Positions 7,674 through 31,718 of a stretch of 64,000 nucleotides of DNA are shown here, piece by piece. The stretch is from Planctomycetota bacterium. Its GTDB lineage: Bacteria; Planctomycetota; JACOTG01. How positions within the stretch are numbered: the first letter of the stretch is position 1; every line of letters starts with the position of its first letter. The DNA lies in the NCBI GenBank assembly GCA_016178505.1, contig JACOTG010000048.1, forward strand, positions 5,110-69,109, in the 5' to 3' direction. The notes beneath the pieces were generated by a model, which saw only the letters and a program-made list of their open reading frames with translations, had not been told where the DNA came from and made no database searches. The position numbers and the translations under genes were made by a program.

Positions 7674-7675
7674 GG

Positions 7676-8203: not shown

Positions 8204-8222
8204 CGAACTTCGCGAGTCGCGA

Positions 8223-10468: not shown

Positions 10469-10598
10469 GTCTCTGTCACCTCCTGCGCGGATTCTTCGCC
10501 TTGCGCACCGCGAAATCAAGCCGCCCCTCGCTGCGATGGACGCGGGCACGCGAATCGGCTACGGTCGTCGCCACTCGAAATGCAAAGGAGGATCGTCG

Positions 10599-11636
10599 AT
10601 GCGAACACTCGCGCTCGCCGCAACGTCGTTCGTTTTCATCGCGCTCGTCGCGGAGTCGCGCGCCGCGCAGCAGCCGGCCGCGAAACCGATCACGCTCGAG
10701 TCGCTGCAGATCGCGAAATCGGAGTTGCCCGCAGGCTGGACTTTCGTGGACGAGCTGCGGTGCGTCTCGCAGCAGCCACTGGGCTTTTTCGATTCGCCCG
10801 AAACGGCAGGGCTCTTCCCGAAGGCGAAGGCCAAGGCCTTTCAAACGATTGCCGCCGCGGGCAGCCACGGCGGAACGGTCTTGTACTTCGAGTACGCGGA
10901 ACCGTTCGAGGCTCGCAGGAAGTCGACCCTCGCCGGCCTCCTCTGGGGCGGCGTAGAACCGTCGAAAATGCACCCGGAGCAGTTCGCCATCTACGACCAC
11001 TTCCTCGTCATCCTCTCGTTCCCGCAGAACAGCGACGAGGCCGAGTGGGTGAAGGACCGACTTCGGCCGATGATCCCCCTTCGTCTGCCGCGCGCCTGGA
11101 AGAGCCTGCAACCCGTGTTCGCGGAAGCGTTCAACGCGCAGCGAGCGGAACAGCCCGATCGCGGGCTCGCCGCACTTCAGAAACATGCCGACGAGGTCGC
11201 CAAATGCTCGTTCGCGCAATTCCTCACCGGCGAACTCTACTCGCAGAAGCAGGACCACGCCGCCGCGGAGAAGGCGTACACGCGGGCTCTCGAGTTGGAC
11301 GTGAAGGACGATCCGCTTCCCGGCGAGGACAGGATCGTTTGGGCGTCGCTCGATGGCGTGCTCATCGCACAATGCATGCAAGGAAAGATGAAGGAAGGGA
11401 TCGTCACCGGCGAAAAGGCGGCGGCCGTCGCGCGTCGCATGCGCGACGACAAGTCGCTGTCGCAAACCCTCTACAACCTCGCGTGCGCGTACGCGGAGAC
11501 TTCGCGCTTCGAGGAGGCGCACAAGACGCTCGAAGAGTGCCTGCGGCTCGCACCGAATCTCAAGGACCAGGCGCGGAACGATTCGTCATTCAAGAAAGCG
11601 CTCGAGCGGAAGGACTTCCAGGATCTCGTGAAGTGA
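10599..11636 (+). CDS. secreted TPR-repeat protein
   Basis: Start at internal ATG with RBS AAAGGAGG. Signal peptide MRTLALAATSFVFIALVAESRAAQQ. TPR-like helices at the C-terminus (AAAEKAYTRALELD..., YNLACAYAETSRFEEAHKTLEECLRLAPN). Confidence 0.55.
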   Translation: MRTLALAATSFVFIALVAESRAAQQPAAKPITLESLQIAKSELPAGWTFVDELRCVSQQPLGFFDSPETAGLFPKAKAKAFQTIAAAGSHGGTVLYFEYAEPFEARRKSTLAGLLWGGVEPSKMHPEQFAIYDHFLVILSFPQNSDEAEWVKDRLRPMIPLRLPRAWKSLQPVFAEAFNAQRAEQPDRGLAALQKHADEVAKCSFAQFLTGELYSQKQDHAAAEKAYTRALELDVKDDPLPGEDRIVWASLDGVLIAQCMQGKMKEGIVTGEKAAAVARRMRDDKSLSQTLYNLACAYAETSRFEEAHKTLEECLRLAPNLKDQARNDSSFKKALERKDFQDLVK

Positions 11637-15146: not shown

Positions 15147-15392
15147 CGTCAGGACTCCGAGTTCCGTAGGGACGCTTCGTTCGCCAGTGCGCGATCGGGA
15201 TACGATCGGGGACACGCTACGTGTCGAGATCCGCCGACGCTTTCGAAATCTTGCTCGTTGTGCCGGCACCGCGTGTCGACCCGGGAGTTCGCGATCCGCG
15301 TCTGCCTCACGAATCCAATGGACTTCGAGGATCCTTGCCAAGACGCTCACGTATCGAGAGCGCCGTGATCTCCTGAGGAGCGAGGACGTCGC

Positions 15393-16193
15393 ATGAGCCA
15401 AGCGCCGAAGTTGTCGTTGATCTTCCCGACGTTCGTCGTGCCCGACGTGCGCGCGACGGTCGCGTACTATCGCGATGCGCTCGGCTTCCGACCGTGCACC
15501 GAGGCGGGGACCCCGCCGAACCTGTTCGCGATCGTCGAGAGCGCGCCCGGACAGGGTTTTCACTTCAAGCATTCGGCGAGCGCGATCGGCCGAAAGAATC
15601 GCGCGGACGGCGGCGACCAGCTCGACGCCTACGTTCGAATCGGCCGCGGCGAGGACGTCGACCGCCTGTCCGCGGCGCTGACGAAGGGTGGCGCGGCTCG
15701 CATCGCGGCGCCGATCGACCGACCGTGGAAGATGCGCGAGCTGGAGCTCGTGGACCCGAACGGCTTCGCCCTTTGCTTCGCCGGCGATCTCGCGGGCGAG
15801 GCCACGCCGGGAACGATCGTCGTGTCCCCGCAGTTCGTCGTGCGCGACGTCGCAAAGACCGCGGCGTGGTATCAGGACGTGCTCGGGTTCCGAACGCTGG
15901 GGCAATGGGGCGAGCCGCCCGAGTACGCAATCGTTGCGCGCGACGACGTGCGCGTTCATCTCGGCCGCGCCGCCGAAGGCGCACGCATTCGCAAGAATCG
16001 CGACGCCGCCGGGATCTGGGACGCGTACGTCGAGTGTCGCGGGATGGACGCGCTTCACGACGCTTTCCGCGGACGCGGCGCGACGATCGTGCGCGGACCG
16101 CAGAACGCGGAGTACGACATGCGAGAACTCGTCGTTCGCACGCCGGACGGCCACGACCTCTGCTTCGGCGAGCCCGTCATCGCGAGCCGCTGA
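15393..16193 (+). CDS. tandem VOC (glyoxalase/bleomycin-resistance/dioxygenase-fold) domain protein
   Basis: Two copies of the F(V)VPDV..YYRDxLGF VOC module. Confidence 0.7.
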   Translation: MSQAPKLSLIFPTFVVPDVRATVAYYRDALGFRPCTEAGTPPNLFAIVESAPGQGFHFKHSASAIGRKNRADGGDQLDAYVRIGRGEDVDRLSAALTKGGAARIAAPIDRPWKMRELELVDPNGFALCFAGDLAGEATPGTIVVSPQFVVRDVAKTAAWYQDVLGFRTLGQWGEPPEYAIVARDDVRVHLGRAAEGARIRKNRDAAGIWDAYVECRGMDALHDAFRGRGATIVRGPQNAEYDMRELVVRTPDGHDLCFGEPVIASR

Positions 16194-16251
16194 CCCCTGG
16201 ATCGGTTCGCGGCGGGCGTCGTATCATGTCGGCCTCCCGGGTCCAGTTTTC

Positions 16252-17364
16252 ATGGAGGATGGCGAAGTGATTCTCACCCGCATCATCGCGACCGCTCTTT
16301 TCGTGTCGTCGCTCGGGCTCTCGCGGTTCGTTCCCGCGCCCGCCGCGTGCGACGTTTGCCACGACCAGAAAACGGTCCAATGCCCGAACTGCGAAGGCAA
16401 GGGCACGTTCCTCGACAAGTGCCCGACTTGCGAGGGCAAGGGCAAGATGCCATGCCCGATCGAGGGCTGCGGCACGACGAAGAAGGGGATGCTTCCCTGC
16501 CCGAACAAGTCATGCGTCAAGGGCATGATCCCGTGGGAGGGGGGCGACAAGGATTCCTGCCACATTTGCTCGGGACGCGGCGCCATCGATTGCCCGACGT
16601 GCAACGATTCCGAGGTCACGTGCTTCCGTTGCGCGGGCAAGCACACGGTGCAGTGGGGGTGTCTCGACTGTCGCTCGACCGGCCGGCTTCCTTGTCCGAA
16701 GTGCCAGCTTCGGGTGGACGCTTCAGACTGCGTGTGGTGTCACGGCGCCCACGATCTCACGTGTCCGCGATGCAAGGGGAGCGGAAACGAGCTCTTCGTG
16801 TGTCCGGTTTGCCGAGGGACGGACAAGGCATACTGCACCGAGTGTCTCGGACTGGGAAAGGTCGCGTGCGACACCTGCCACGGCACGGGATGGAAGCGCT
16901 ACAAGATGGTCGACAGGTCCGGAGTGAACCACGGCTCCGGCGGGCGGCGGCAATGCGACTCGTGCAACGGCACCGGGACCGAGACTTGTCCGCAGGGCAA
17001 GGATCGGCAGCTGCCGTGCTGGATCGGGAACGTGTTGAAGCGGTGGAAGCACGTCGAAGGCAAACTCGTCGCGAGCTGTCTCTGGTGCGACGGGGACAAG
17101 CACCTTCCGTGCGGAGGGTGCTACCGCGGCGAGCAGCGCGGTCTCGAGATTTCGGCTCGCGTTCTCGCCAAGGCGAATCATCACGCGGAGGCGGCGACGA
17201 TGCTGCGCGCGGCACTCGCTCGGGCGCAGGCCTATTTTGCGCGCGGCCCACAAGGCGAAGTGAAGTCGCCGGACGATCTCGCCAAGTTCAATCGCGCTCG
17301 CTCCGACACTCTGGCGCGCATCGAGGGCGAAATCGCAACCGAGGAAAAGACGCCGGCGAAATAG
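16252..17364 (+). CDS. membrane-anchored protein with multiple DnaJ-type CxxCxGxG zinc-finger motifs
   Basis: N-terminal hydrophobic segment. Eight CxxCxGxG motifs (CPNCEGKG, CPTCEGKG, CHICSGRG, CPRCKGSG, CPVCRGTD, CTECLGLG, CDTCHGTG, CDSCNGTG) plus further CxxC pairs. The start is internal to the six-frame ORF 15688..17364. Confidence 0.6.
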   Translation: MEDGEVILTRIIATALFVSSLGLSRFVPAPAACDVCHDQKTVQCPNCEGKGTFLDKCPTCEGKGKMPCPIEGCGTTKKGMLPCPNKSCVKGMIPWEGGDKDSCHICSGRGAIDCPTCNDSEVTCFRCAGKHTVQWGCLDCRSTGRLPCPKCQLRVDASDCVWCHGAHDLTCPRCKGSGNELFVCPVCRGTDKAYCTECLGLGKVACDTCHGTGWKRYKMVDRSGVNHGSGGRRQCDSCNGTGTETCPQGKDRQLPCWIGNVLKRWKHVEGKLVASCLWCDGDKHLPCGGCYRGEQRGLEISARVLAKANHHAEAATMLRAALARAQAYFARGPQGEVKSPDDLAKFNRARSDTLARIEGEIATEEKTPAK

Positions 17365-17374
17365 GCGACCGCTT

Positions 17375-17938
17375 TCAGCGCAGCGATTCGAGCGCGGTCC
17401 ATCCTGTTTTCGAAACGTGCTTCGACGCGTCGAGTGTCTGCGCCGCGGCGCGCAGCGCCTCCCCGTCGCGCGCAACGACGAGCGCGAGCGGCACGCCGTC
17501 CCGATCCTCGGTCCAGACTGAACCCGAGAGCTTGCCGGACGCCTCGGCCCAGCGCGGTGCGAGGAGTTTGTCCGCGGCGACGATCGCATTCGTCGCGAGA
17601 ACGAGATCGTCCGCGGAGAGGACCGAGCCCGGACGCGTCACCAGCTCGTCCACGCTCGTTGCGTCGTGTGAGACGCGCGAGTACGGCTCGTACGGACCGT
17701 CGCCGTCGTCGCGGTTCGACGTCCACGTCGGGCGCTTTTCGCGATACACGCGAAGCCAGTCGGGGTCGGATGCGCCCGGGCCGAGCAGCCAATCGCGGTA
17801 TCCCGAGCCGTGGTGCGCCCTGCCCGCCGCCGCATCGCGCGCATGGACGAGCGTCGCGGGATAGTTCGCGAAGACCTCGAACGACGGCGCGTCGGAGGAC
17901 GCAGCGAGTGAGGCGAGAAGGGTCAACGCGGGAATCAT
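17375..17938 (-). CDS. small secreted hypothetical protein
   Basis: Start at Met43 of the ORF (MIPALTLLASLAASSDAP signal peptide). No domain recognised. Confidence 0.4.
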   Translation of the reverse strand: MIPALTLLASLAASSDAPSFEVFANYPATLVHARDAAAGRAHHGSGYRDWLLGPGASDPDWLRVYREKRPTWTSNRDDGDGPYEPYSRVSHDATSVDELVTRPGSVLSADDLVLATNAIVAADKLLAPRWAEASGKLSGSVWTEDRDGVPLALVVARDGEALRAAAQTLDASKHVSKTGWTALESLR

Positions 17939-17981
17939 GGCCGATCCGTACGACGCGAGGAGCGGAAGCGTTGGCCGAGTC

Positions 17982-19757
17982 TCACTTCTTCGCGGCCTCT
18001 TCCACGATGCGCGGAAGGAGGTTCTCCTCGCCGAGCTTCCAGCGCTGAACCTCCTTGCCGGCAACGAAGATCATCGGGATCGCCGTGAGGCCGAGCTTCT
18101 TCGCCGCCGCCACGTCGTCGCCGATCGAGTTCAGGAGCTCTGGAAGCTGCATGGCCTCCCACAAGACGTCGCCCTCGATGCCGATGGCCGTCGCCTCGGC
18201 CGAGACCGTGGCCTTGTTGAAGTCTCCTTGGTGCGTCATCAGCCAGTCGTGCATTTTCCAGAACGCCTCGATGCCGCCGAGCGCGGCGCTGGCCTCGGCC
18301 GCGCGCGCGGCGAGGCACGCGAGCGGGTGGAGAGTTTTCTCGGCCGTCCCGTTGCACTGTTGATCGACGGGGTAGTGGCGGAACGCGTACCTCACGTCCG
18401 AGCGCACCTTCACCATCGTGCGACACGTGCGATCGACTTCGGCCGTGTACGGCTCCTGGTAGTCGCCGAAGACGACGATGCTCACGGGCGCCGAGTCAGG
18501 GCCGAGCGTTCGGGGGAACGCGTCGGGCGGCATCGCCACGGTCGGTGCCTCGCGCCAGTCGCCGAGGCTCTTCTCGAGCGCCAACGCCGGTCGATCGGAC
18601 TCGGCCGTGGTCGCCGCCGGGCGCTTCGCCTCGAGCGTGGCGATCGTTCGCAGGACGGCGTCGGGCGCGTTCCAGCCGCGAAGCTCCACGCCGTTCACGA
18701 AGATCATCGGCGTCGTCGAGATCCCGAGCTTCATCGCCTCCGCAATGTCGGCCTGCACGTTTGCGAGCGTCTGCGGACCGTGAATGGCGGCGACGACTCG
18801 CGTGCGATCCAGCCCCAACTCCGCGAGCCCGCGGTCCAGTTCCTCGTTCGTGAACGAGCCGCCGCGTGCGAACAACCACTCGTGCATCTTCCAGAAGCCC
18901 GCCGATCCGCCGACCTGACCCGCGGCCTCGGCAGCGCGCGCGGCCCAACAAGCGTTCGCGTGCATCGTGGGCGCGTTCGGGTTGCACTCGGCGCACATGG
19001 GGAAGTGCTTCACGGAGAGCGACACGGAATCGTGCGTCTTCATCGCGGTGCGCAGCTCGCCCTCGATGCGCTTGCAGTCGGGGCACTGGTAGTCGGTGAA
19101 GACGACGATGCGGATCGCGGCGGGATCGGGTCCCAAGCGGTAGCGTCCGGTGAAGGTGCCCGTGAACTTTCCCATTTCCGACATCGACGCGGCGAGGTCG
19201 CGCTCGGCGCGCGCGCGCACGGCGCCGCGGGTGGAATGCTCCGCGAACGCGAGAAGTCCGGTCATCAGCGCGAAGGCCGCGACGCCGGTCGCGACTTGCC
19301 ATTTCGAAGGCGCGGCCGCCGGACGAGCGAGGCGTCCCCACTCGACGATTGCCCAAAAGACGACGCTTGCGACGTGAACCGCGAGGCACCACGGACAGAG
19401 GAGTTGCTCGCCGATCATCGCCCCGACGAACGTCGTCGACCCGAAGGCGCCGAGCCGCGAAAGCCAGGCGAGGCTCGGGCCCGGCGTGCCGCGCGCCGCG
19501 CTCCACGCCGCCGCAAGGCCCGCGAACCAGGCGACACCGAGGAACGAGACGGGCCAATCGACGAGCGGGACCTTGCCCCACGTGCTCGCCGCGAGCTTCG
19601 CGCACGCGCTCTCAGGCCCGCAGCCCGGAACGGCCATCGCGCCCAAGTGTCCGAGCGCCAGCACGAGCGCGCTTCCGCCCGCGACGACGAGCGCCACGAG
19701 CCCGAATCCAAAGCGGAGCGATGCCGACTGCGGTGGAGCGGGAACCGACTTCGTCAT
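17982..19757 (-). CDS. vitamin K epoxide reductase (VKOR) domain fused to two DsbA-like thioredoxin domains
   Basis: N-terminal VKOR-like transmembrane region with CxxC (CPWC). Two DsbA-like modules (DYQCPDC; FGDYQEP...QCNG). 591 aa. Confidence 0.75.
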   Translation of the reverse strand: MTKSVPAPPQSASLRFGFGLVALVVAGGSALVLALGHLGAMAVPGCGPESACAKLAASTWGKVPLVDWPVSFLGVAWFAGLAAAWSAARGTPGPSLAWLSRLGAFGSTTFVGAMIGEQLLCPWCLAVHVASVVFWAIVEWGRLARPAAAPSKWQVATGVAAFALMTGLLAFAEHSTRGAVRARAERDLAASMSEMGKFTGTFTGRYRLGPDPAAIRIVVFTDYQCPDCKRIEGELRTAMKTHDSVSLSVKHFPMCAECNPNAPTMHANACWAARAAEAAGQVGGSAGFWKMHEWLFARGGSFTNEELDRGLAELGLDRTRVVAAIHGPQTLANVQADIAEAMKLGISTTPMIFVNGVELRGWNAPDAVLRTIATLEAKRPAATTAESDRPALALEKSLGDWREAPTVAMPPDAFPRTLGPDSAPVSIVVFGDYQEPYTAEVDRTCRTMVKVRSDVRYAFRHYPVDQQCNGTAEKTLHPLACLAARAAEASAALGGIEAFWKMHDWLMTHQGDFNKATVSAEATAIGIEGDVLWEAMQLPELLNSIGDDVAAAKKLGLTAIPMIFVAGKEVQRWKLGEENLLPRIVEEAAKK

Positions 19758-20050: not shown

Positions 20051-22243
20051 GTGACCCTCACCCGAAGGCGCATGGCGTCGGCGATTCTGGCCGGACTCGT
20101 CTTACTGGGTACGGGCATGTTGATTTGGCGCATGATGCGCTCGGAAACGCCTGGGCCATCAAATGGCGCGACTCCTGCTCTGAGTGCGACGCGGACTGAG
20201 ACGCGATCTTCGACGACTACTGGGACTGAACGCGAACTCTCGCGATCGAGTGTCGCAGAACTCCAACGTTCTCCGTCGACGGCGAATCGCTTGGGCGCCT
20301 TGCGGGGTCGGGTGATTGGGCGCGCCGGAGAGCCGGTTTCGAGCGCAACGGTCGAGGTGCGGAAAAACTCGGCGAGCGACTCGTCCATATTGCGGCCAGA
20401 CGTGTCCGCGCCGCCCCTACGAAGTGTGGCGACGGATCGAAATGGAGAATTCAGCTTCGACCTTCCGGCTGGACGGTCGTTCGATCTTCGTGTGATGGCT
20501 GAGGGCTTTGCGCCGATCGTCCGGACCGACCGTTACGCGGGAGAGAACGTCCTCGTCGAAGTCGGACGCGGGGGAACGATCCGCGGAAACGTGAGCCGAT
20601 CGACCGACGGCACTCCGGTCGCGAATGCAATCGTTCGGCTGTCCGGCGGTGGCGCTGACATCGCGAGTCGCAGCGAGACGGACCCAGGAGGCCGCTACGA
20701 GATCGAAGTGGGCGATCCCGGAACGTACTGGTTGAGTGTCTATCCATCGGCGGATGGTGCAGTCGAATCACGAAGGATCGATCTCGAGGAAGGCGAGACT
20801 GTGCGCCAAGACATCGAGGTCGATCCCGGTGTCACCTTCTCGGGACGCGTGACCGATGCCCGAAGCCATGAGCCGATCATCGGGGCTCACGTGACGGATC
20901 GCGGTATCGGCGAGAGATTCGCGGAGACGAACTCGGACGGATACTTCATGCTCGACGGAATCAACCCAGCTCCTCAACGAGGGATTTTCATTCGCGCGAG
21001 CGCCCCGGATCATGCGACCGCGGAGCTCCATGTCGATTCGGCCACTGCGGCGGCGGCACCGCTCGAGTTCGCGCTCCAACGTGGCGGCGACGCACGCGGG
21101 GTCGTCATCGATGCGATGGGCAGACCCGCCTCGGACGTCGAGGTTTCGATACTCGTCATCGACCCTCGCTACATGATGCCGCGTCAAACCACACCGGCGA
21201 TTCTCAGCCGTGCCGACGGCGCCTTCGAGTTTCGAGAGCTGCGTCCCGATGCACGTCATCTCCTCATTGCACGGAAGGATGGTTTCGCGACCCGGACAGC
21301 CGTACTCGATTCGTTTGGCGAACATGCCGGCGTGGCCGATCTTGGCGTCTTTGCGCTCGATCCCCCCGCATCGATTGTCGGACGCGTCACGCGCGAAACG
21401 GGCGAGCCGGTTTCCGACGTGTTCGTGAAGATCGAGTCGTGCGACCGAAGCCGGGGATCGTCGGAAACGCCTCTCGATGCGATCGCGCTTTCGAGCTCGC
21501 GCTCACGGCGCACGGACACGACGGGCCGTTTCTGCATCACGGATTTGGCGGCAGGGCGATATCGGGTGAGTGCCCAGATTCAGGGGCGGCGCAACGACGC
21601 GAAGCGCGACATCGAATTGAAGGTCGGACAAGCGGTCGACGGAATCGATCTCGTCCTCGAGCAAGGACCCTCGATCAGCGGAAGGGTCGTCGATTCGTTT
21701 GGAAAGGGCGTTTCGTTCGTACGCATCGAAGCGTTCGCCGATTCCCTCCCGAAGTCGGCCAAGACGCGGCTCTCGACCGAATCCGACGGTTCCTTCCACA
21801 TCGAGGGGCTCGCCGAAGGAACGTACACCGTCACTGCGCAACGTGTCGAACTCAGCGGTAATCGAGGTGAGTCTCCATTCGGTGTAGGGATTGCCCGTGG
21901 AGTCGCCACCGGATCCGAGGCGCTTCAAATCGAACTTCGCCGTGCGCGACCGACGTCAGGCATTCTCCTCGATCACGAAGATCAGCCCGTCGCCGGCCTC
22001 ACGATTCTCGTATCCGATCCGATAGATCGATTCAGTGATGTCACGGTCACGGATGCCGAGGGTCGATTTTCGATCGTCATGCCGGAACCGGCGCAGTTGA
22101 ACTTCGACGTCGCGACCACGAGCGGATTTACACTCGACGTCTCGGGCCCCGGTACGGTCGAGGCTGCGGTGGCGGAGCGTGCCGTCACAGGAATCCAGTC
22201 GGGAGTGAGCGACTTGGTTTTTCGTCTAGTGCCTAAACGCTAG
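20051..22243 (+). CDS. membrane-anchored protein with tandem carboxypeptidase-regulatory-like (CarbopepD_reg) domains
   Basis: N-terminal transmembrane helix, then repeated G(R)V.D..G.PV beta-sandwich modules (GRVIGRAGEPVSSATV, ISGRVVDSFGKGVSFVRI, and others). Confidence 0.6.
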   Translation: MTLTRRRMASAILAGLVLLGTGMLIWRMMRSETPGPSNGATPALSATRTETRSSTTTGTERELSRSSVAELQRSPSTANRLGALRGRVIGRAGEPVSSATVEVRKNSASDSSILRPDVSAPPLRSVATDRNGEFSFDLPAGRSFDLRVMAEGFAPIVRTDRYAGENVLVEVGRGGTIRGNVSRSTDGTPVANAIVRLSGGGADIASRSETDPGGRYEIEVGDPGTYWLSVYPSADGAVESRRIDLEEGETVRQDIEVDPGVTFSGRVTDARSHEPIIGAHVTDRGIGERFAETNSDGYFMLDGINPAPQRGIFIRASAPDHATAELHVDSATAAAAPLEFALQRGGDARGVVIDAMGRPASDVEVSILVIDPRYMMPRQTTPAILSRADGAFEFRELRPDARHLLIARKDGFATRTAVLDSFGEHAGVADLGVFALDPPASIVGRVTRETGEPVSDVFVKIESCDRSRGSSETPLDAIALSSSRSRRTDTTGRFCITDLAAGRYRVSAQIQGRRNDAKRDIELKVGQAVDGIDLVLEQGPSISGRVVDSFGKGVSFVRIEAFADSLPKSAKTRLSTESDGSFHIEGLAEGTYTVTAQRVELSGNRGESPFGVGIARGVATGSEALQIELRRARPTSGILLDHEDQPVAGLTILVSDPIDRFSDVTVTDAEGRFSIVMPEPAQLNFDVATTSGFTLDVSGPGTVEAAVAERAVTGIQSGVSDLVFRLVPKR

Positions 22244-22427: not shown

Positions 22428-24302
22428 TCAGAAACTGTTGCCGGTGTTCCGGCTCGTGTTCGAAGACGAGCCGTAGTGGAAGCGGATGATCGCCGGCGGA
22501 TGGCGTCGCATGAGTTCGAGCTGCTCCGGCGTGAGCACGTGGTGGAACTCGCGCTCCATGCGCGCTTGAAGTACGAAGAAGTCCTCGTAGAGCCGCGCTT
22601 GTTCTGTGGGGCTGAGCGCCCGCGGGTTGGCGCCGTACTGTCCGTAGTCGCGCAGGAGTCGCTCGGCCTCGGTCGTGTAGCTTGCGGCGACGGACCGCAC
22701 CGCGCCCTGCTGGCTCTCGTCGAACGAGTAGGCCCAGTCCCATTGTTGGTAGACGTTTTCGGCGTACTTCCCACTCGCGACGTCGTCGAGCATCCCGATG
22801 TCGCCGATCGATTCGTCGCCTCGCATCAGTCGCCCGCTCACGTTCTGGATTGCGTCCCATTGCGCGCGCTGAGAATCGGTGAGCATCCCGTTCACGGAGT
22901 TCGTGATGTCGGAGATCAACTGCATCCGCGCGCGGTACAGCTCGACCGGGAGCGCCGTCGACGGATCGAGCTCCGACAGCCGGCCGGCGAGGAGAGATCG
23001 CGTCGTCTTGTCCAGCTCGGCGAGCTGACTCTCGGTGAGACCGAGGGACTTGCTGAACATGGCGTGGACGTAGTCGGGGAGAATCTTCGGATCGAAGAAA
23101 GGAACGGGCGACGCGGTCTTCACTTGCGCGACGAGCTTCATGTACTCGCTCAGCATGGCGGCCATCTTGGCTTGTTGCTCGGGAGTGAGCTTGTTCTCGT
23201 CCTTCATCGCGATCGCGAGGAGATCGACGTTGTTGGCGAGTAGCTCGGCGAACTTCGTCCAATCGATGGCATCGGGACCGACGAGCTTCGCTTTTCCGTC
23301 GCCGGCCTTCACCGCGGAGTTCGGTGAGGGCGCGAGTTCCGCGCTCGACGCGAGACGAGCGCGATCGGCCGACGCGAGCGCGTCCTGCGCGGTGCGCGCT
23401 TCGGCTTCCTTCTTGTGCAGCGCGTCGATGGTGCGCGCGTAGTCGGCCTTCAGTTTCTCGAACTCGGCCTTGCTGACGCTCGCAGCATCCGAGTGGGTCG
23501 CGTTCTTCTCGAGGGACGGGGCCGCGCCGTCGGCTCGGAGAATCGTACGGCCGGCCCACAGCCCCGCGCCGAGCGACACGATGCCGAGAATCAAAGCGCC
23601 GCCGATGATCTGCTTCGTCATGAGGATTCCTCCTAGGGTCAAACCGGTGCTGATCGTGGCCGTCGACGTCGCGTTCGCGGCGATCGTCATCAGCGATGCC
23701 GAGAGCTTCGCGGGTACGTGAAGCGCCGCCGACGAGCGCATGAGGCTCTCGACGTTCGGGACGACCGAGAGATAGCCCGCCGTCGCAAGTCCTCGCTTGA
23801 GCAGTTTCAGAGCTTTCTGAATTCGCGTCTGGGCGGTCGTGCGCGAGATCGCCAACGCCTCCGCGACCTCGAACTGCGACAGGCCTTGGTAGTAGTGCAA
23901 GAGGATCAGCGATCGCGACGCTTCCGGAAGTTTCGCGATCTCCCCCTCCACGACGGCCTCGAGTTCGCGATGCTCCAGCCGCTCTTTTTCCTCGAACTCG
24001 TCGCGCTTCATGGGCGCCTCGCTCTCCCTCTGCCGTCGCAGCTTGGAGTCTCGGATGAAGTTCCGGAGCACGCTCGTGGCCACTCGGTAGATCCACGGCT
24101 TCAGCGCGCGACGCGAGTCGTAGCGGTGAAAGTTGCGCAGCACCGTGATGAAGATTTCTTGGGTTGCGTCCGCGGCGTCGGCCTCGTTGCCGAGCATGCG
24201 GTACGCGAGGTTGTAGAGCGGACGCTGCCAGTCGAGGACGACTTGCGCGAGCGCCTCGCCGTTCCGGGATGGTTCGCTCGGTTCGAGCACGGCCGTTTCC
24301 AT
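22428..24302 (-). CDS. ECF (sigma-70 family) sigma factor fused to a transmembrane helix and a roughly 370-aa extracytoplasmic domain
   Basis: Region 2 (DATQEIFITVLRNFHRYD...KPWIYRVATSV) and region 4 (ILLHYYQGLSQFEVAEALAISRTTAQTRIQKAL). The frame continues through a transmembrane helix (IIGGALILGIVSLGAGLWAG) into a long Ala/Glu-rich domain. No stop codon at the junction, checked on the DNA. Confidence 0.7.
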   Translation of the reverse strand: METAVLEPSEPSRNGEALAQVVLDWQRPLYNLAYRMLGNEADAADATQEIFITVLRNFHRYDSRRALKPWIYRVATSVLRNFIRDSKLRRQRESEAPMKRDEFEEKERLEHRELEAVVEGEIAKLPEASRSLILLHYYQGLSQFEVAEALAISRTTAQTRIQKALKLLKRGLATAGYLSVVPNVESLMRSSAALHVPAKLSASLMTIAANATSTATISTGLTLGGILMTKQIIGGALILGIVSLGAGLWAGRTILRADGAAPSLEKNATHSDAASVSKAEFEKLKADYARTIDALHKKEAEARTAQDALASADRARLASSAELAPSPNSAVKAGDGKAKLVGPDAIDWTKFAELLANNVDLLAIAMKDENKLTPEQQAKMAAMLSEYMKLVAQVKTASPVPFFDPKILPDYVHAMFSKSLGLTESQLAELDKTTRSLLAGRLSELDPSTALPVELYRARMQLISDITNSVNGMLTDSQRAQWDAIQNVSGRLMRGDESIGDIGMLDDVASGKYAENVYQQWDWAYSFDESQQGAVRSVAASYTTEAERLLRDYGQYGANPRALSPTEQARLYEDFFVLQARMEREFHHVLTPEQLELMRRHPPAIIRFHYGSSSNTSRNTGNSF

Positions 24303-24534: not shown

Positions 24535-26043
24535 ATGACGTCACGACTCATGCGACACGCACGGCTGTGCGTCCTGATCTTCGCGGCCGCCGCCCGCGCT
24601 TCGGCGGGAGGTCCGGCACTCGACCTCGACAACCGCTCCGTCGTCGACCACCTCGGAGGTCGCGGGCGGGCGTTCACGATGACTTCCGCCATTCTCGGCG
24701 AGACGCGGCGCATCGACGTCGCCACGCCGGAGTCGTTCGACGTCACCGGCCCCAATCGTCGCTATCCGGTGATCCTGGTGTTCGACGGCGAGTACAACTT
24801 CGCGCACACCACCGCGACGGCCCAGTATCTCGCCGAGGCCGGCCAAATCCCCGAGGCGCTCGTCGTCGCCGTCGAGAACATCGGCGGAAACGAGGAGCGA
24901 GTGCGCGACCTCACTCCGCCGGGACTTTCCGTGAGCGGCAGCAGCCTGAACGAAGGCGGCGATCGCTTTCTGGACTTCCTCGAGAAGGAGCTGCTCCCGG
25001 CGCTTGCGACGCAGTTTCGGGCAGGCCCGCCCAACGTGCTCATCGGTCATTCGTCCGGCGGGATCCTCGTGACGTACGCTGCGGCAACGCGCACGACGGT
25101 GTTTCCGTTCATCGTGTCGATCGACGCGCCGACGCACTTGCAAGACGGCTGGCTCGTGGCGCAGCTCGTTGCGAAGGCGCAGAAGCCCCCGGCGAAACCG
25201 CTGCGGTATGCGTCGCTCGAGTCACGCTTCGGTTGGTCGGACAAGGACTGGGCCGCGCTGCAATCGGCGGCGCCGGCGTCTTGGAAACTGCACCGCGAGA
25301 AACTCGCTCACGAAACCCACAACTCGATGCCGCTCCTCGCGACGTACCTCGGCCTGCGCGAAGTGTTCGCGGACTACTCGATGCTGGCGGCCCGCGATTC
25401 ACCGACGAGCGCGGCGCTCGAGCACTACCGCAAGTTCAACGAGTCGCTCGGCGTCACCGTCGTGCCGCCGCGCCCGTTGCTCGGTCGCGTGATCGAAGAC
25501 TTGCTGATCGAAGGCAACGCGAAGGTGGCTCAGTCCGCACTCGATTCGCTGATCGCCGGGTACGGCGACACTCCGAACGCTGCGACGATCCGCGCGCAAA
25601 TCGCGGAAGCGGCCAAGCTGCCGCCGCTGACGGAGACCGTCGAGGACTTGCTGAGCGCTCCGAAGCCCGACCCGAAAGCGATGGCTCCGTTCCTCGGAGA
25701 ATGGAACGGCACGATCCGTCACCGCGGCAGCATTCCCGAGCCCTTGCGCGTGCGTCTGGAAGTGCAGGGCGGCGTGGTCACGGGCGTGCTCACTCATTTC
25801 CCGGAACCGGGCGTGGAGCTGCCGATGCCGCTCCAATACGTCAAGATCGTGGAGGGCGGCTTGCACTTCGGCTTCATGAACGGGATGCGCCCGCGCGGCA
25901 TGATCGTTTACGAGGGCATTCTCCACGATGGCAAGCTCGAAGGCGAAGCGCCGATTCGCGGCGTGCGCTTCGAGCGTCCCCCCGGCGCGCCCGACACGCA
26001 CTTCTCGCTCCAGCTCACCAAGCCGGCGACGCGGAAGGTGTGA
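24535..26043 (+). CDS. secreted alpha/beta-hydrolase, putative esterase family
   Basis: Signal peptide, GHSSGG nucleophile elbow, about 500 aa. Confidence 0.65.
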   Translation: MTSRLMRHARLCVLIFAAAARASAGGPALDLDNRSVVDHLGGRGRAFTMTSAILGETRRIDVATPESFDVTGPNRRYPVILVFDGEYNFAHTTATAQYLAEAGQIPEALVVAVENIGGNEERVRDLTPPGLSVSGSSLNEGGDRFLDFLEKELLPALATQFRAGPPNVLIGHSSGGILVTYAAATRTTVFPFIVSIDAPTHLQDGWLVAQLVAKAQKPPAKPLRYASLESRFGWSDKDWAALQSAAPASWKLHREKLAHETHNSMPLLATYLGLREVFADYSMLAARDSPTSAALEHYRKFNESLGVTVVPPRPLLGRVIEDLLIEGNAKVAQSALDSLIAGYGDTPNAATIRAQIAEAAKLPPLTETVEDLLSAPKPDPKAMAPFLGEWNGTIRHRGSIPEPLRVRLEVQGGVVTGVLTHFPEPGVELPMPLQYVKIVEGGLHFGFMNGMRPRGMIVYEGILHDGKLEGEAPIRGVRFERPPGAPDTHFSLQLTKPATRKV

Positions 26044-26067: not shown

Positions 26068-29000
26068 CTAGCGTGGAGTGCGCGTCGGCAGCGTGACGCG
26101 CACCTCGTGGTCGCGAGGCCCGACGATCTCGACGGGGATGTCGATGTCGGGATACTGGAGCACCGTGATGTGGAGCCTGTAGCTTCCGACAGGAAGCGCG
26201 TTCCTCAATATCGTGCGACCTCGGAAGAGAGAGCCCGCCCACTGAGAGCGCGACGAGCCGGCTTCGAAGATCTGCACGTTGCTCATCAGCGAATTCTGGG
26301 ACGCATCCAATAGCTGCTGCTCAAAGGCCACTTCACGTGTTGCAAACCGTTCGTCGTCGACGACGAGAACGATGCGGCCCGCCGGCTTGATGGGAAACGT
26401 CCGATCGATTCGGTCGCCGTCGGTGACGGTGAAGCGAGCGCCGGCGACTTGGAAGCTCCCGCGCGAATCTTCGCGAGCGTTCAGCTCGAGGACGTACTCG
26501 CCGGCCGGAAGGTGCATGAATTCGAATCGCCCGCGGGCGTCCGTGTGCGCGCTGCCTCGCGACCGGCGAGTCACGGCGTCGAGCGCTTCCACCTCGATGT
26601 CGGAGAGATCGACGACGTCGCCTGCGTCGAGCCTTCCGACGAGAGTTGCCGGCGGCGACAGCTCGATGCGAATCCCCGTGACGTCCTCGCCCGCACGAAC
26701 GGTCAACGGCCGCTTCGTCACCTCGTGCCCCGTCGATTCGGTGATTTCCATCGTGTAGTCGCCGGGCAGGACGTTCTCGAATTCGAAGTGCCACGCCATG
26801 GTGCGCGGGATCAAGGACCGGCCGTTGGCATGCTGCATCCACATCGAGTATCGCGTGACGCGCTTTCCATCGCGATCGAACACTGCGCCTTCGACGCGCT
26901 GGCCGGCGACGTGGCCGCCGGGAGGCGCGGACAGTTGGAGTTGGACGGGCTCGTCGCCGGCCGTGATGACCGACGCCTGCAGCCGGTACGGATTCACGAA
27001 GTTCCACGCTCGCACGCGGTAGGGGCCTTCCGGCAGATCCTCGAAGCGGAACCGGCCGGCTTCGTTCGTTTCTCGTGTCCCGAGGATTCCCGGGTCGAAG
27101 GGATTGGCCGTTCGATCGAGCGCGGTGTCGGCGTCGGCGCGCACCACGCGAACCTCTGCGCGCGCGGGCCGTCCGTCGGAGTCGACGACTCGTCCTTCGA
27201 CGACGTGCGCGGCTTGGAGCGTGACGCCGAGCGCGACGCCTTCGTCCGGATAGCAATCCAGCGTGACGCTGCTCTTCGCGAAACCGGGCGCTTCGATCTC
27301 CAGCATTCGCGGAAAATCAGTGGGACGGAAGCAGCGATCGAGACGGGCCATCCCTTTTTCGTCCGTTCGATCGCCCGGGTACGTGAGGAGGTATTGGACG
27401 AGCGCGCCGAACACCGGAGACCCACGATCGTCGGCGACGTGGATCTCGAAGCGGCTCGATCGATGAACGAGGCGAATCGTCACGTCCGCAGCATCCGGCG
27501 AATCGGCGACCTCGATCCCGCCTGACGTTCCGTCGTCGGTTCCGCTCCACACCCAGAAGGCCCCGCCGGTGTGAAAACGCGGGATCGCCGGAAACTCGAA
27601 ATGACCGTTCGCGTCGGCCGAGGTCTCCGCGCTCTGTTCGACTTGTCGAGTGAGCGGCGGGAGGTGAGCGCCGACCTCGATTCCGAGAAGCGAGTGAAGG
27701 TCGTAGCTCACGCCCGCTCCGGCGACGGGCCGATCTTCATCGTCGACGACCACGCCGCGCACGACGCGCGTTCGAACGAGACGCACTTCTTCGACGGGCG
27801 ACGACGACGTGTTCCAGGCGAGGCCGAACCGGCCGGACGCCCGAGCGACGATGCACAGCGGCTCCTCTCGAAAGGGCGCGCCGAGGACGACTTCGCCGTC
27901 CTCGTTCGTCGTCGCCTCGCCGAGACTCACGGCTCCGACGTATCCCGATTCGCGACCCGTGCCGACGCTCACCGTGCGTTCGCGTCCCGACCAAGCGGCG
28001 ACGTTCGCGTCCTTCACGGGGAGTTCGGTTTCCGCATCGAGAACGCGGACGCGCAATCCCTCTCCCGCGACGAGGTCGATCTCACGAGGATGCTCCCGAG
28101 TCGACGCGCCGGCGCGGAACCGGTCGTCCATGTCCAGCTTCAACGGTTGGTATCCGTCGCGCGAAATCCGAAGCTCGGTCGCGTCCCAGTATCTGCCGTT
28201 CCCCGGATCAGGAGTGGAGAAGCGGCCCTGCGAATCCGATTGCGTAAGCCCGCGCGAGACGACTCCGCCTCGCAGCACGAACGTCTCGGCGGATGCGCCG
28301 GCGAGCGGTTCGCCCGTGTCGCTGTCCCAGATGATGAAATACATCGTGCGCGCCGCCTCGAGTCGCAGCTCGACGTCGCGCGGTCTCGAGGCGACCACGA
28401 TGCGCGAGTCTTGTCGGTAGCCGTCGGCGTCGGCGACGACTCGCCGCACTCGCTCGCTGCCGGGGACCCGAATCTCGAACTCGCCTTCTGCGCCGCTCAA
28501 TGTCGCGGGCTTGCCGTCGAGCGTTCCCATCGAATCCGCCGAGCTGATGCGGAGACGAGCGCCGGCGATGGGTCGTCCGTCTTCGTCGACGACGCGCCCG
28601 TCGATGCGCCATGCATTCGGATCGACGGAAGGGACCGAGGACGTCGCCATCGCGTCGGGCGACTCCGGCGCGGAGGCGTTCAGGGGTAGAACGGAAGCCG
28701 TCGTCGACGCGGCGCCCGTCACCGCGGCGATGGTCGTCGCGCGCTCGTCGCGGCTCCCGGCGAAGCGCCACAGCGCCAAGACGGCGAGCAGCAGCAACGC
28801 CGCGATCCACACAACCTTCGCCTTCATCGCCATCACGCCTCCGACCACTGCGCCCACGCCCGTTCGCTTCGACTCGAGCCCGACGAGCGGCAAGAGCGCG
28901 AGCCGCCATTCGCGCGCGTCGTCGCCATGTCGCCGGAGCAACTCGACTCTCAGCATCGCGAGCCCGCGCTTCACTCGCGTGCGCACGGTCTCGACCGGCG

Positions 29001-29454
29001 CGCCGACGCGCTCGGCTATCTCTCGCGGCGGCAGGTCCTCGAAGTAGCGAAGCACGACCGCGGTGCGGTACGGCTCATCGAGGCTCATGACCGCAGTCAG
29101 CACACGGCTTTGCTCCGCGATCCGCGCGATGACGCCGTCCGTCGAAGGCTGTGCCTCTGGGCGAGCGGCGGCTTTCTCGCGCTGGCTGCGGTGCTTGTCG
29201 CTGCGGACGAACCGCCGCGCGACGTTCCGGGCCACGCCGCGGATCCACGCTCGCGAGCTTGCTTTCCGCGAATGCGGCTCGCGCAGCGCGACGAGCATCG
29301 TTTCCTGAACGACGTCGTCGGCGACGGTCTCGTCGAAAACGAGGCTTCTCGCCAGCCGTCGCACGCCATCGACGTGCGCGAGCAGAAAAGTCGGATCGAT
29401 CCGCGAAGCGTCGTCGCTCATGTCGTTCACGGAGAAGTGCCAGCGGCTCGGCAA
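26068..29454 (-). CDS. ECF sigma factor fused to a transmembrane helix and a large extracytoplasmic array of carboxypeptidase-regulatory-like domains
   Basis: N-terminal sigma regions 2 and 4 (ADDVVQETMLVAL...; REIAERVGAPVETVRTRVKRGLAMLR). Transmembrane helix (VVWIAALLLLAVLALW). More than six CarbopepD_reg-like repeats (IDGRVVDEDGRPIAGARLRI, VEGRVVDSDGRPARAEVRVV, and others). 1128 aa. Confidence 0.7.
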   Translation of the reverse strand: MPSRWHFSVNDMSDDASRIDPTFLLAHVDGVRRLARSLVFDETVADDVVQETMLVALREPHSRKASSRAWIRGVARNVARRFVRSDKHRSQREKAAARPEAQPSTDGVIARIAEQSRVLTAVMSLDEPYRTAVVLRYFEDLPPREIAERVGAPVETVRTRVKRGLAMLRVELLRRHGDDAREWRLALLPLVGLESKRTGVGAVVGGVMAMKAKVVWIAALLLLAVLALWRFAGSRDERATTIAAVTGAASTTASVLPLNASAPESPDAMATSSVPSVDPNAWRIDGRVVDEDGRPIAGARLRISSADSMGTLDGKPATLSGAEGEFEIRVPGSERVRRVVADADGYRQDSRIVVASRPRDVELRLEAARTMYFIIWDSDTGEPLAGASAETFVLRGGVVSRGLTQSDSQGRFSTPDPGNGRYWDATELRISRDGYQPLKLDMDDRFRAGASTREHPREIDLVAGEGLRVRVLDAETELPVKDANVAAWSGRERTVSVGTGRESGYVGAVSLGEATTNEDGEVVLGAPFREEPLCIVARASGRFGLAWNTSSSPVEEVRLVRTRVVRGVVVDDEDRPVAGAGVSYDLHSLLGIEVGAHLPPLTRQVEQSAETSADANGHFEFPAIPRFHTGGAFWVWSGTDDGTSGGIEVADSPDAADVTIRLVHRSSRFEIHVADDRGSPVFGALVQYLLTYPGDRTDEKGMARLDRCFRPTDFPRMLEIEAPGFAKSSVTLDCYPDEGVALGVTLQAAHVVEGRVVDSDGRPARAEVRVVRADADTALDRTANPFDPGILGTRETNEAGRFRFEDLPEGPYRVRAWNFVNPYRLQASVITAGDEPVQLQLSAPPGGHVAGQRVEGAVFDRDGKRVTRYSMWMQHANGRSLIPRTMAWHFEFENVLPGDYTMEITESTGHEVTKRPLTVRAGEDVTGIRIELSPPATLVGRLDAGDVVDLSDIEVEALDAVTRRSRGSAHTDARGRFEFMHLPAGEYVLELNAREDSRGSFQVAGARFTVTDGDRIDRTFPIKPAGRIVLVVDDERFATREVAFEQQLLDASQNSLMSNVQIFEAGSSRSQWAGSLFRGRTILRNALPVGSYRLHITVLQYPDIDIPVEIVGPRDHEVRVTLPTRTPR

Positions 29455-29647: not shown

Positions 29648-31417
29648 TCACTGGATCGCGACCACGACCGCGTTGGTGACGCTGAACCCGATCGAGTTCG
29701 CCGCGCCGGCGTCTTCGATGGCGCCCTGGATCGTGAACATGCGGGCTCGTCCCGCGTTCGAACGTCGAAGGGTCCACGGCGCGGGCCCGGGCCCGACGAC
29801 GTCGATGATGCCACGACTCGCCGCGGGAGGAACGCCGCCGCGAAGGCAGGCGGCGGGTTGCGGACCGGCGCCGAGCTGGATTGGCGTCGGCGCGATCATG
29901 CAGCCGAGCGATTGGCCGCGCGCAACGAAGTCCACGGGATCCATGGGCGCCCCTCGCCAGATCCAGAGCACGTATCGTGCGGGCGTCGGTCCGGTGGGAG
30001 CCGCCGCGAGGGACACCTCGATGGGGGAGGCGGTGTCGACGGGAACGAACCGAGGATTGCCGTTCACGACGAGAACATTGACGACAGGGCCCTGCCCCGC
30101 GTTCACCGTTCCCTGGGCGCAGGACATGCGATCGTGCACGAACACATCCATGGAACCGTTCGTGTCGTTCATCACGAGGTTCGTTGCGTAGCTGATGAAC
30201 GCGACCTGCCGCCCATCGCCCGAGAGGGCGGGGAAGTAGGAATCGCCGTTCGCTTCGGTGCCTGCGGAGTCGATGCTCACGCGCTCCGTTGTCCCTGCTC
30301 GCAAGTCGCGCACGAAGACGTCTTGCAGCCCGTTGGTGTCGCCTGGGACGAGGTTCGTCGCTGTGCTCAAGAACGCCACGTACCGCCCGTCGCGGGAGAG
30401 CGACGGCGCCACGCTCACGCCGTCGCAGGTATCGCCCGACGGCGTCGTACTCACGAGAGACGTTTCACCGGTCGCCATGTCGTGCAAGAAGACGTCGGCG
30501 AGCTCGTTCGAATCGGCCGCCGTCAAGTTCGTGGCGCTGCTCGCGAACGCCACGAACCGACCGTTTGCGGAAACCGACAGCCGGTCGTTGCCGCTCGTGC
30601 CGTTCGCCTGGGCGCCGGTCGAGCTGACGCTCACGCGCGTCGTCGCGAGAATGGCGCGGTCGTAGAGAAACACGTCGTTCACGCCGTTGGTATCTCCGGC
30701 GACGAGATTGCCGGCGAGATGTTGAAACGCCACGAAGCGTCCGTCTGCCGAGATCGCGAGGAAGTTGGCGACGCCGAAGCGATCCGGCTGCGCTCCGAAG
30801 CGTCCGATGCTGACTCGCGACGTCTCGTCGGCGTCGAGGTCGCGCACGAACACGTCCGCGAATCCGTCCGTGTCCCCGACGACGAGGTTCGTTGCGGCGC
30901 TCGTGAACGCCACGAAGCGCCCGTCCGCCGAAATTGCAGCGAGGTCGCTTCGTCCGTCCGCGTCGGCGCCGTTCACTCCGACGCTGACGCAAGAGGTCTC
31001 ACCGCTGGCTCGGTCGTGGACGAACACGTCGACCACGCCGTTGCCGTCGCCGGACACGAGGTTCGACGCGTCGCTCGAGAAGGTCACGTAACGACCGTCA
31101 TCCGAAGTCGAGGCGAAGAAACTATCGCCGTTTCCCTGCCCTCCGGTCGAGTCCACGCTGACGCGCTCGGTCTGCCCCGTGAGTCGGTCGCGAAGGAACA
31201 CGTCCATGAAACCGTTCGTGTCTCCGGGGACCAGGTTCTGCGCTGCACTATGGAAGGTGACGAAGCGTCCATTGGCGGAGATCGAGGGTGCGGTGCTGAA
31301 TGCGTCGCCCTGCAGCTCCGACGCGCTGACGCTGACGCGGGTCGTGGCTTGCTGGGCGAAAGCCCAATCGACGAGGGTGAGCGTCGCAACGACGCAGATG
31401 ACTCTTGTGAAGCACAT
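29648..31417 (-). CDS. secreted beta-propeller repeat protein (TolB/PD40-like repeats)
   Basis: Start at Met64 (MCFTRVICVVATLTLVDWAFAQQ signal peptide). At least eight repeats of SxDGRFVAFxSxAxNLVxGDTNGxxDVFVxDR. Confidence 0.6.
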   Translation of the reverse strand: MCFTRVICVVATLTLVDWAFAQQATTRVSVSASELQGDAFSTAPSISANGRFVTFHSAAQNLVPGDTNGFMDVFLRDRLTGQTERVSVDSTGGQGNGDSFFASTSDDGRYVTFSSDASNLVSGDGNGVVDVFVHDRASGETSCVSVGVNGADADGRSDLAAISADGRFVAFTSAATNLVVGDTDGFADVFVRDLDADETSRVSIGRFGAQPDRFGVANFLAISADGRFVAFQHLAGNLVAGDTNGVNDVFLYDRAILATTRVSVSSTGAQANGTSGNDRLSVSANGRFVAFASSATNLTAADSNELADVFLHDMATGETSLVSTTPSGDTCDGVSVAPSLSRDGRYVAFLSTATNLVPGDTNGLQDVFVRDLRAGTTERVSIDSAGTEANGDSYFPALSGDGRQVAFISYATNLVMNDTNGSMDVFVHDRMSCAQGTVNAGQGPVVNVLVVNGNPRFVPVDTASPIEVSLAAAPTGPTPARYVLWIWRGAPMDPVDFVARGQSLGCMIAPTPIQLGAGPQPAACLRGGVPPAASRGIIDVVGPGPAPWTLRRSNAGRARMFTIQGAIEDAGAANSIGFSVTNAVVVAIQ

Positions 31418-31718
31418 CACGGTGTCTCCTCGCGCGCCTCGAGTGATGAAGCCTGCAGGCGGGCATACGACGCGGGCACGCGCGGCAAAAAACCAGGAGA
31501 GGCCTGACGAAAGCTGCCCATCGTCCCCGAGTGAGCAAATCACAGTCCTCGGCGCGACCGAGAATCCGCCCGTCGGCAGCACGGGATTATGAGGCAGATG
31601 GCTCATCAGGTGCGCCGAACACGGATCCTCGTCGGGAGAATCGACCTCGGTCTTCCGGTGGGGTTGAACGGATTACACGCCCCTTTGCCCTGCGACAGGA
31701 ACCGTGCTGGTGCGTCAG

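Follow-up and report, generated by a model that had tools for sequence, protein, structure and literature searches.

Extracytoplasmic function (ECF) sigma factors rank third among the major routes by which bacteria transduce signals, and a single planctomycete genome holds dozens of them. The present study concerns one gene, hereafter the target, in a 64,000-nucleotide stretch of DNA (the window) from a Planctomycetota bacterium (assembly GCA_016178505.1, contig JACOTG010000048.1, positions 5,110 to 69,109 of the forward strand). Its single product joins an ECF sigma factor, through one transmembrane (TM) helix, to nine beta-sandwich modules of the CarboxypepD_reg type. C-terminal extensions have been described as the second commonest mode of ECF regulation, occurring in 19 groups (PMC7826278). 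In Planctomycetes, an ECF clade with huge and diverse extensions has been reported (PMC7671368), and about five ECF57 copies per genome are given for this phylum (PMC7826278). Pinto and da Fonseca question whether such extensions regulate anything, and how a sigma factor with a tenfold larger tail binds RNA polymerase (PMC7671368).

Fusion to membrane-spanning parts is known for ECF48, ECF52, ECF53, and IutY (PMC8999054, PMC5826349), and proteolytic activation has been proposed for ECF52 (PMC5826349). IutY of Pseudomonas putida (ECF243), described as unique, stays inactive until Prc and then RseP release a sigma domain of ~23 kDa. IutY variants that keep periplasmic residues all need RseP, and Prc is needed only above ~50 periplasmic residues (PMC5411451). 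The first-pass annotation of the window stated that TM-bearing C-terminal ECF extensions are reported in Planctomycetes. The general kind is indeed established, with ECF01-Gob/ECF57, ECF52, and IutY as examples (PMC5411451, PMC8999054, PMC7671368). A fusion of this kind is no surprise in itself, and the existence of such fusions is known to specialists.

Since the window is GC-rich (60 to 68% G+C) and carries many spurious long open reading frames (ORFs), ORF length alone is no proof of a gene. The one uninterrupted ORF of 1128 aa claimed in the first-pass annotation was recovered from the ORF list when read from the TTG at 29454 (26068-29454, minus strand). In NCBI, the identical protein (P0001, 100% identity) is titled 'MAG: sigma-70 family RNA polymerase sigma factor [Planctomycetes bacterium]' and is modeled with 1117 aa from the ATG at 29421. 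Residues are given here in the 1117-aa form unless stated, and adding 11 converts them to the 1128-aa numbering. The in-frame G+C content at third codon positions (GC3) of the target ORF lies between 0.72 and 0.91 in each 100-codon window, the sigma/TM junction included. Being continuous over that junction, it gives no sign of the frameshift or missed stop against which the first-pass annotation had cautioned. That a sigma gene and a membrane-protein gene were merged there by a sequencing or assembly error is exceedingly improbable: nothing was found in favor of such an artifact, and the uninterrupted architecture recurs in hundreds to thousands of independent sequences, with assemblies from NCBI, JGI, ENA, and Logan among their sources. 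The target ORF is thus confirmed as a real gene and the fusion as genuine. An AlphaFold2 model was built with 78 relatives (mean predicted local distance difference test, pLDDT, 77). In order, the product comprises sigma2, sigma4, a short post-sigma4 helix, a tether, one TM helix, a disordered stalk, and nine beta-sandwich modules (Table 1).

Table 1. Parts of the target and its neighboring genes, in coordinates of the window (residues of the target in the 1117-aa form; HMM, hidden Markov model)
Feature	Position	Strand	Residues or length	Basis or remark
Sigma-TM-array coding sequence	26068-29421	-	1117 aa	From ATG at 29421; stop codon 26068-26070; frame open to TTG at 29454
ECF sigma region 2	29164-29394	-	aa 10-86	Pfam Sigma70_r2; AlphaFold2 helices, pLDDT ~90
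ECF sigma region 4	28930-29142	-	aa 94-164	Pfam Sigma70_r4_2; AlphaFold2 helices, pLDDT 91-96
Clade-specific post-sigma4 motif	28882-28929	-	aa 165-180	Family conservation; AlphaFold2 helices
Flexible cytoplasmic tether	28822-28881	-	aa 181-200	pLDDT 39-53; conserved G-x3-M-x2-K-x-K just before the membrane
Single TM helix	28759-28821	-	aa 201-221	Kyte-Doolittle; AlphaFold2 helix 201-219
Disordered Ala/Ser/Thr/Pro-rich extracytoplasmic stalk	28612-28758	-	aa 222-270	pLDDT 29-38; AlphaFold2 disorder at aa 220-263; proposed site-1 cleavage region
Nine CarboxypepD_reg/transthyretin-like beta-sandwich modules	26092-28611	-	aa ~271-1110	Pfam; self-built repeat HMM; AlphaFold2 all-beta, mostly pLDDT 75-97
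PD40-repeat (TolB-like beta-propeller) protein	29648-31606	-	652 aa	Directly upstream of target, 194-nt gap
Esterase gene	24535-26043			Convergent to target; stop 24 nt from the target's stop
Second ECF fusion	22428-24302	-	624 aa	Sigma2 57.5 bits, sigma4 42.8 bits; TM helix aa ~226-250
Sigma-less CarboxypepD_reg protein	20051-22243	+	730 aa	~4 kb from target; likely start ATG at codon 8
VKOR with two DsbA/thioredoxin-like stretches	17982-19757	-	591 aa	Envelope disulfide-bond formation module

Sigma regions 2 and 4 had been placed at the N-terminus from the letters alone, and profile searches agree. Pfam Sigma70_r2 (aa 26-87 in the 1128-aa numbering; 36.3 bits against a cutoff of 24), Sigma70_r4_2 (aa 117-168 in the same numbering; 48.1 against 25.7), Sigma70_r4 (34.8 against 24.1), and NCBIfam TIGR02937 (sigma70-ECF; 68.9 against 42.9) all score above their cutoffs, and sigma4 carries a helix-turn-helix. 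The linker between the two regions is short in the AlphaFold2 model (aa 87-93), and no Pfam match to sigma region 1 or region 3 was found in the target. Thus, with sigma2 and sigma4 only, a short linker, and a passed curated ECF model, the protein belongs to the ECF (group 4) sigma-70 factors. Two planctomycete-specific NCBIfam sigma subfamilies stayed below their cutoffs (TIGR02984, 42.5 against 183.75; TIGR02989, 46 against 124.55). The closest solved proteins by sequence, for the sigma part only, are classical ECFs, namely R. sphaeroides RpoE (2q1z), M. tuberculosis SigE, and B. subtilis SigW. Residues D36, Q39, W59, R73, E82, L114, P117, R119, and R152 are invariant or nearly so among 30 to 120 relatives. 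These sequence matches and the predicted structure support the N-terminus as a bona fide ECF sigma factor that looks functional. If the N-terminal domain were a sigma-like decoy of the PhyR kind, or otherwise no transcription factor, the protein would chiefly serve the envelope and would bind other proteins through its cytoplasmic domain. We regard this as very unlikely: the PhyR_sigma2 match that might suggest it is weak and sub-threshold (22.3 bits against a Pfam cutoff of 27), whereas the sigma2, sigma4, and TIGR02937 models are all passed, no receiver domain is present, and conservation within the protein peaks at the sigma4 helix-turn-helix (74% identity to the orthologue discussed below).

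Immediately after sigma4, the clade carries a motif with the consensus L-D-x2-H-G-G-d-R-x-a-W-x2-A-L-x-P-L. Among 120 relatives, W172 is conserved in 90%, L176 in 89%, and P178 in 80%. Of 255 family proteins, 151 contain the pattern W..[AL][LIVM].P[LIVMF], at a median position of 171, and the neighboring ECF fusion lacks it. In the AlphaFold2 model, this region forms two short helices (169-175 and 177-180, pLDDT 85-92). No mention of this conserved juxtamembrane motif was found in the ECF papers examined. The linker from sigma4 to the membrane measures ~36 residues and holds no Cys/His motif, and aa 160-240 gave no Pfam match even at E<=10; therefore, there is neither room for nor trace of a hidden anti-sigma domain. 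Neither was an anti-sigma gene found near the target, nor a partner conserved in 69 loci of relatives, and the absence of a separate anti-sigma partner, as first annotated, is upheld.

The TM helix of the first-pass annotation coincides with the only strong hydrophobic segment of the protein (Kyte-Doolittle 19-residue maximum 2.39 at aa 214-232 of the 1128-aa form, the sole segment above 1.6), and AlphaFold2 places a helix at the same site. A hydrophobic segment stands at the matching position in 113 of 120 relatives, whose alignment also shows a conserved Trp at the outer end of the TM helix. Since the sigma factor must be cytoplasmic, no N-terminal signal peptide is present, and only one TM helix exists, we infer that the sigma part faces the cytoplasm and the array lies outside.

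Beyond the membrane, the first 50 aa have a family composition of 20% Ala, 14% Pro, 9% Glu, and 8% Ser. The 'about 900 aa of repeats' noted earlier resolve into nine beta-sandwich modules with approximate limits at aa 271-355, 358-437, 446-550, 552-664, 665-735, 739-830, 841-921, 925-1013, and 1015-1110. Pfam CarboxypepD_reg (PF13620) matches the target in five stretches with 134.1 bits against a cutoff of 32.3, and a repeat HMM made from the target's own modules recovers the same modules as AlphaFold2. By Pfam threshold and beta-sandwich fold together, the array belongs to CarboxypepD_reg. The module consensus reads GRV-D-x2-G-x-P-x-GA-x-V ... TD-x2-G-x-F. In a Foldseek search against the PDB, only multi-domain beta-sandwich stalks were matched (Gram-positive pilins, SdrD B domains, TIE protein, and alpha2-macroglobulin MG domains), and no enzyme fold was among these matches. 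The pilin matches also brought isopeptide-bonded CnaB-type modules into consideration, and these were set aside, as the module consensus has no conserved Lys. An extended beta-sandwich module measures ~3.5-4 nm, and the modeled array, if extended, could be long enough to cross the periplasm. Because it has no enzyme fold and could span the periplasm in this way, the array most likely serves as a non-catalytic sensor, of the binding or 'tripwire' type, that responds to a cue in the envelope or outside the cell. Of the one-component sigma factor with an outside sensor that was first proposed, the architecture and the single TM helix stand, and 'sensor' is a role that we infer for the array.

Far from being a one-off fusion, the target typifies a very large Planctomycetota family whose members are annotated but uncharacterized. 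A full-length search returned at least 508 matches, nearly all from Planctomycetota, 600 to 1450 aa long and carrying r2, r4_2, and CarboxypepD_reg. Because that search is biased by the ectodomain, an exhaustive second search was made with aa 1-235 (sigma and TM) only, its counts being representatives of 50%-identity clusters. It gave 2,462 representatives at E<=1e-30, almost all of them long proteins with a TM segment, and 12,762 at 1e-10, with alignments that mostly reach query residue ~220, through the TM helix. The best 150 matches have a median length of 888 aa; 143 of them reach 260 aa or more, and 137 of these have the hydrophobic segment. Relatives' ectodomains were classified by Pfam, the target-derived repeat HMM being too narrow and missing Pfam-called CarboxypepD_reg proteins. 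In this ectodomain-unbiased sample, CarboxypepD_reg arrays are found in 47 of 51 top-ranked long members. The first-pass annotation had taken the sensor type to be uncharacterized. This holds insofar as no paper was found naming a CarboxypepD_reg ectodomain on an ECF; the type is not rare, however, with at least about 2,400 clusters at 50% identity annotated as 'sigma-70 family'.

A scan of species-representative genomes, made by N-terminal alignment with one peptide pattern only, yielded 80 loci. Nearly all are from uncultured Planctomycetota metagenome-assembled genomes (MAGs), the exceptions being two labeled Deltaproteobacteria or Myxococcota and several labeled only 'bacterium'. The 70 complete ORFs have a median length of 852 aa, and 60 of them are long with the TM helix at the expected place. 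Several MAGs carry two to four loci each, and the data indicate a strong paralogous expansion of the sigma-TM-array architecture. On one Planctomycetota MAG contig (L002), three paralogues of 1009, 944, and 1167 aa (4801-7830, 8001-10835, and 14573-18076) lie within 19 kb, and further sigma-TM-CarboxypepD_reg copies were seen on other contigs of the same MAG. Two other loci (L025, 5968-6837; L018, 5959-7032) hold complete ORFs of 289 and 357 aa, which consist of sigma, a hydrophobic segment, and a short tail and so represent the cassette without an ectodomain.

In all-against-all BLAST of the flanking ORFs of 84 loci, nothing recurred except the sigma fusion (69 loci) and the shadow ORF antisense to it, and no conserved neighbor gene was found in these 69 loci. 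There is likewise no synteny with a 46%-identical orthologue (P0002), whose neighbors differ. The lack of a conserved neighbor, together with the different surroundings of the orthologue, therefore argues for a stand-alone, one-component status. Against the same orthologue, sigma4 is the most conserved part, followed by sigma2 (51%) and the array modules (33 to 60%), with the stalk lowest at 30%; the array is thus as conserved as sigma2. In some relatives (P0006, P0052, P0032, P0035, and P0111), the TM helix is kept and SBP_bac_5, FGE-sulfatase, or PDZ domains stand outside in place of beta-sandwich arrays. These proteins share 49 to 55% identity with the target in the sigma part and retain the motif region together with the TM helix. 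As relatives of the sigma part keep the sigma-TM cassette with other ectodomains, a sensory role of the outside part is suggested.

These data bear on the proposal that the fusion has no regulatory meaning. In this account, a duplicated minimal sigma2-sigma4 unit landed before a membrane-anchored CarboxypepD_reg gene, and the array retained a structural role. It agrees with the published 'fortuitous insertion' model for ECF extensions in Planctomycetes (Pinto and da Fonseca 2020, PMC7671368), and the sigma-less protein encoded in the window, with its TM anchor, stalk, and array, shows a plausible ancestral partner gene. A recent accident, however, would not be expected to persist in thousands of lineages (the 2,462 representatives) or to keep the same ectodomain type in nearly all long members. 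Moreover, the whole array is conserved at the orthologue level, and the conserved unit is sigma, post-sigma4 motif, and TM helix, kept even where the ectodomain is swapped. We therefore consider a meaningless fusion distinctly unlikely. Since the tether motif is conserved along with the TM helix and the ectodomain type over at least about 2,400 clusters, the pattern speaks for selection on the whole architecture and not for a fortuitous insertion. We conclude that the coupling of this clade to CarboxypepD_reg arrays is under selection. Judging from the sequences, what evolves as a unit is the sigma-motif-TM cassette, in contrast to the published model, which takes a 'minimal sigma2-sigma4' (PMC7671368). 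The meaningless-fusion, decoy, and artifact explanations all fit the conservation data poorly.

By analogy with the systems described above, we consider it moderately probable that the target is a single-polypeptide transmembrane signaling protein whose sigma factor is released by regulated intramembrane proteolysis. While tethered at the inner membrane, the sigma factor would be inactive. A signal that removes or destabilizes the ectodomain would permit a cut in the exposed stalk (site 1), after which fewer than ~50 extracytoplasmic residues would be left, and this stub would become the substrate of a site-2 (RseP-type) intramembrane protease. By the second cut, the sigma factor would come free, still carrying the conserved post-sigma4 helix, and could bind RNA polymerase. 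A first cut that generates a site-2 substrate as in IutY would most naturally fall in the disordered stalk of ~50 residues. An ancient origin of the fusion by insertion before a membrane-protein gene is compatible with such proteolytic release.

Several observations weigh against this proposal. No cleavage site is predictable in the target, and helix-breaking residues are not obvious in the TM core. No gene for a site-1 or site-2 protease lies near the target in the window, and none is conserved beside the relatives. The orientation of the protein is a matter of logic, and the positive-inside rule lends it no support, with K+R at 1.46 before the TM helix against 1.34 after it. A shared ECF-type promoter was not found upstream of 77 family genes, where counts of 5-mer/N14-19/4-mer patterns reached at most 18 sequences, against 12 to 16 in shuffles, and consisted of GC-rich words only. 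The clade has no experimentally studied member. No cultured host was seen among the 80 loci, which is weak evidence given a scan with one peptide pattern.

The sigma factor could instead act while anchored, as ToxR, CadC, and TcpP do. The ectodomain would then alter the oligomeric state or conformation of the protein, and RNA polymerase would be recruited to membrane-proximal promoters with no proteolysis. The 20-residue disordered tether and the short helix could give the necessary reach, the post-sigma4 helix and the G-x3-M-x2-K-x-K element could pass on a conformational signal, and the lack of a protease linked to the gene would be expected. On the other hand, IutY, the only dissected analogue, is inactive in all TM-keeping variants unless RseP cuts (PMC5411451). 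A sigma factor must also accompany RNA polymerase through promoter opening, for which a tether of ~36 residues between sigma4 and the bilayer is short, and a disordered stalk of ~50 residues between the TM helix and the first module would be a poor transmitter of conformation. Activity in the anchored state thus seems unlikely to us, and release by proteolysis is preferred.

A broader version of the proteolytic-release proposal may also be put forward, speculatively and as one that we would not expect to hold in full. According to it, sigma, post-sigma4 motif, and TM helix would form a portable cassette that has radiated in uncultured Planctomycetota into thousands of one-component envelope sensors, with the sigma factor itself as the substrate of regulated intramembrane proteolysis. 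The array would be a periplasm-spanning tripwire reporting on the spacing or integrity of the envelope or on an attack by proteases or polysaccharides from outside, and the W-x3-L-x-P helix would be an autoinhibitory or protease-recognition element that replaces an anti-sigma domain.

Two genes related to the target, a second ECF fusion and a sigma-less protein, lie within 6 kb of it. In the second ECF fusion, the sigma part is 33% identical to that of the target and lacks the W-x3-L-x-P motif. Its extension of ~370 aa is helical and shows five L(T/D)xxQ motifs (aa 372, 422, 474, 527, and 590), with the Pfam LTXXQ match remaining sub-threshold (20.2 bits against 24.3). From its sequence, this protein seems to join a sigma factor to a periplasmic domain of the CpxP/Spy kind. 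The sigma-less CarboxypepD_reg protein has an N-terminal TM anchor (aa 8-27), a Ser/Thr-rich stalk (aa 30-80), and a CarboxypepD_reg match of 216 bits in seven stretches. Its layout is that of the target minus the sigma domain, with an identity to the target of only 25 to 30% and a GC3 of 0.67, below that of the neighboring genes. The PD40 neighbor is made of WD40-like repeats, an extension type described for ECF57 that is here encoded by a separate gene; relatives of the target do not share this neighbor. Nearby genes also encode a methyltransferase, a sugar transferase, Kup, and the VKOR-DsbA fusion. Scans for sigma-70 consensus promoters and terminators around the target gene were empty or uninformative.

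BlaR1/MecR1-type sensor-proteases are common in Planctomycetes. One membrane sensor-protease of this kind, a 951-aa protein with a BlaR1-type Peptidase_M56 domain (100 bits), is encoded at 5271-8126 on the minus strand. At 2453-4984, also on the minus strand, lies a gene for an 843-aa protein with GmrSD_N, GmrSD_C, and DUF4268, a type IV (modification-dependent) restriction endonuclease.

The clade gives a concrete form to the question raised for planctomycete extensions, as it offers at least about 2,400 clusters with a conserved tether motif, TM helix, and ectodomain type. It also predicts a simple mechanism of release by proteolysis without an anti-sigma partner. If this proves true, the clade would be the first family of wide occurrence whose sigma factor is itself a membrane-bound substrate of proteolysis, and its members would offer compact, single-gene transmembrane switches for synthetic biology.

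Among Planctomycetes, the target resembles ECF57 (formerly ECF01-Gob), in which an ECF core is likewise joined to a C-terminal extension of very large size; anti-sigma factors are lacking, each genome has several paralogues, and the genomic context is not conserved (PMC8999054, PMC7826278, PMC7671368). As its published hallmarks, ECF57 has two conserved cysteines, for which a link between sigma2 and sigma4 has been proposed, and some of its members bear WD40-like repeats (PMC8999054). In contrast, the target has no Cys in aa 1-190, and among 120 relatives 62 have none and 44 have one. Furthermore, it has no WD40/PD40 match, its extension being built of CarboxypepD_reg modules. The target's clade differs from the published description of ECF57 also in its own post-sigma4 motif and in its tight coupling to CarboxypepD_reg arrays. 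On sequence grounds, this tether motif and this association are what appears particular to the clade.

ECF52, exemplified by SCO4117 of Streptomyces coelicolor, shares with the target an ECF sigma factor, a TM region and, outside the cytoplasm, a stalk of low complexity (there rich in proline) and a beta-rich domain that binds without being catalytic (PMC5826349). It differs in having a zinc-finger anti-sigma domain between sigma and membrane, where the target has its short linker with neither Cys/His motif nor Pfam match, and in being confined to Actinobacteria. A precedent for a sigma factor that is itself held inactive at the membrane and is a direct substrate of a site-2 intramembrane protease is pro-sigmaK, cut by SpoIVFB in Bacillus subtilis (PMC10202637). 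That protein is a group-3 sigma factor with a short N-terminal pro-sequence and no extracytoplasmic domain, whereas the target has a C-terminal TM helix and an ectodomain.

IutY comes closest, as it also unites a cytosolic ECF sigma factor, a single TM helix, and a periplasmic domain in one polypeptide with no separate anti-sigma factor. Its periplasmic part is a FecR-type cell-surface-signaling domain that listens to the adjacent TonB-dependent receptor IutA; in the target, nine CarboxypepD_reg modules take this place, no Pfam match to a FecR domain was found, and no receptor gene lies nearby or in the conserved neighborhood (69 loci). The two also differ in phylum and in number, IutY having been described as unique and the target being one of a family of thousands. 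By analogy, IutY is the best functional model for the target.

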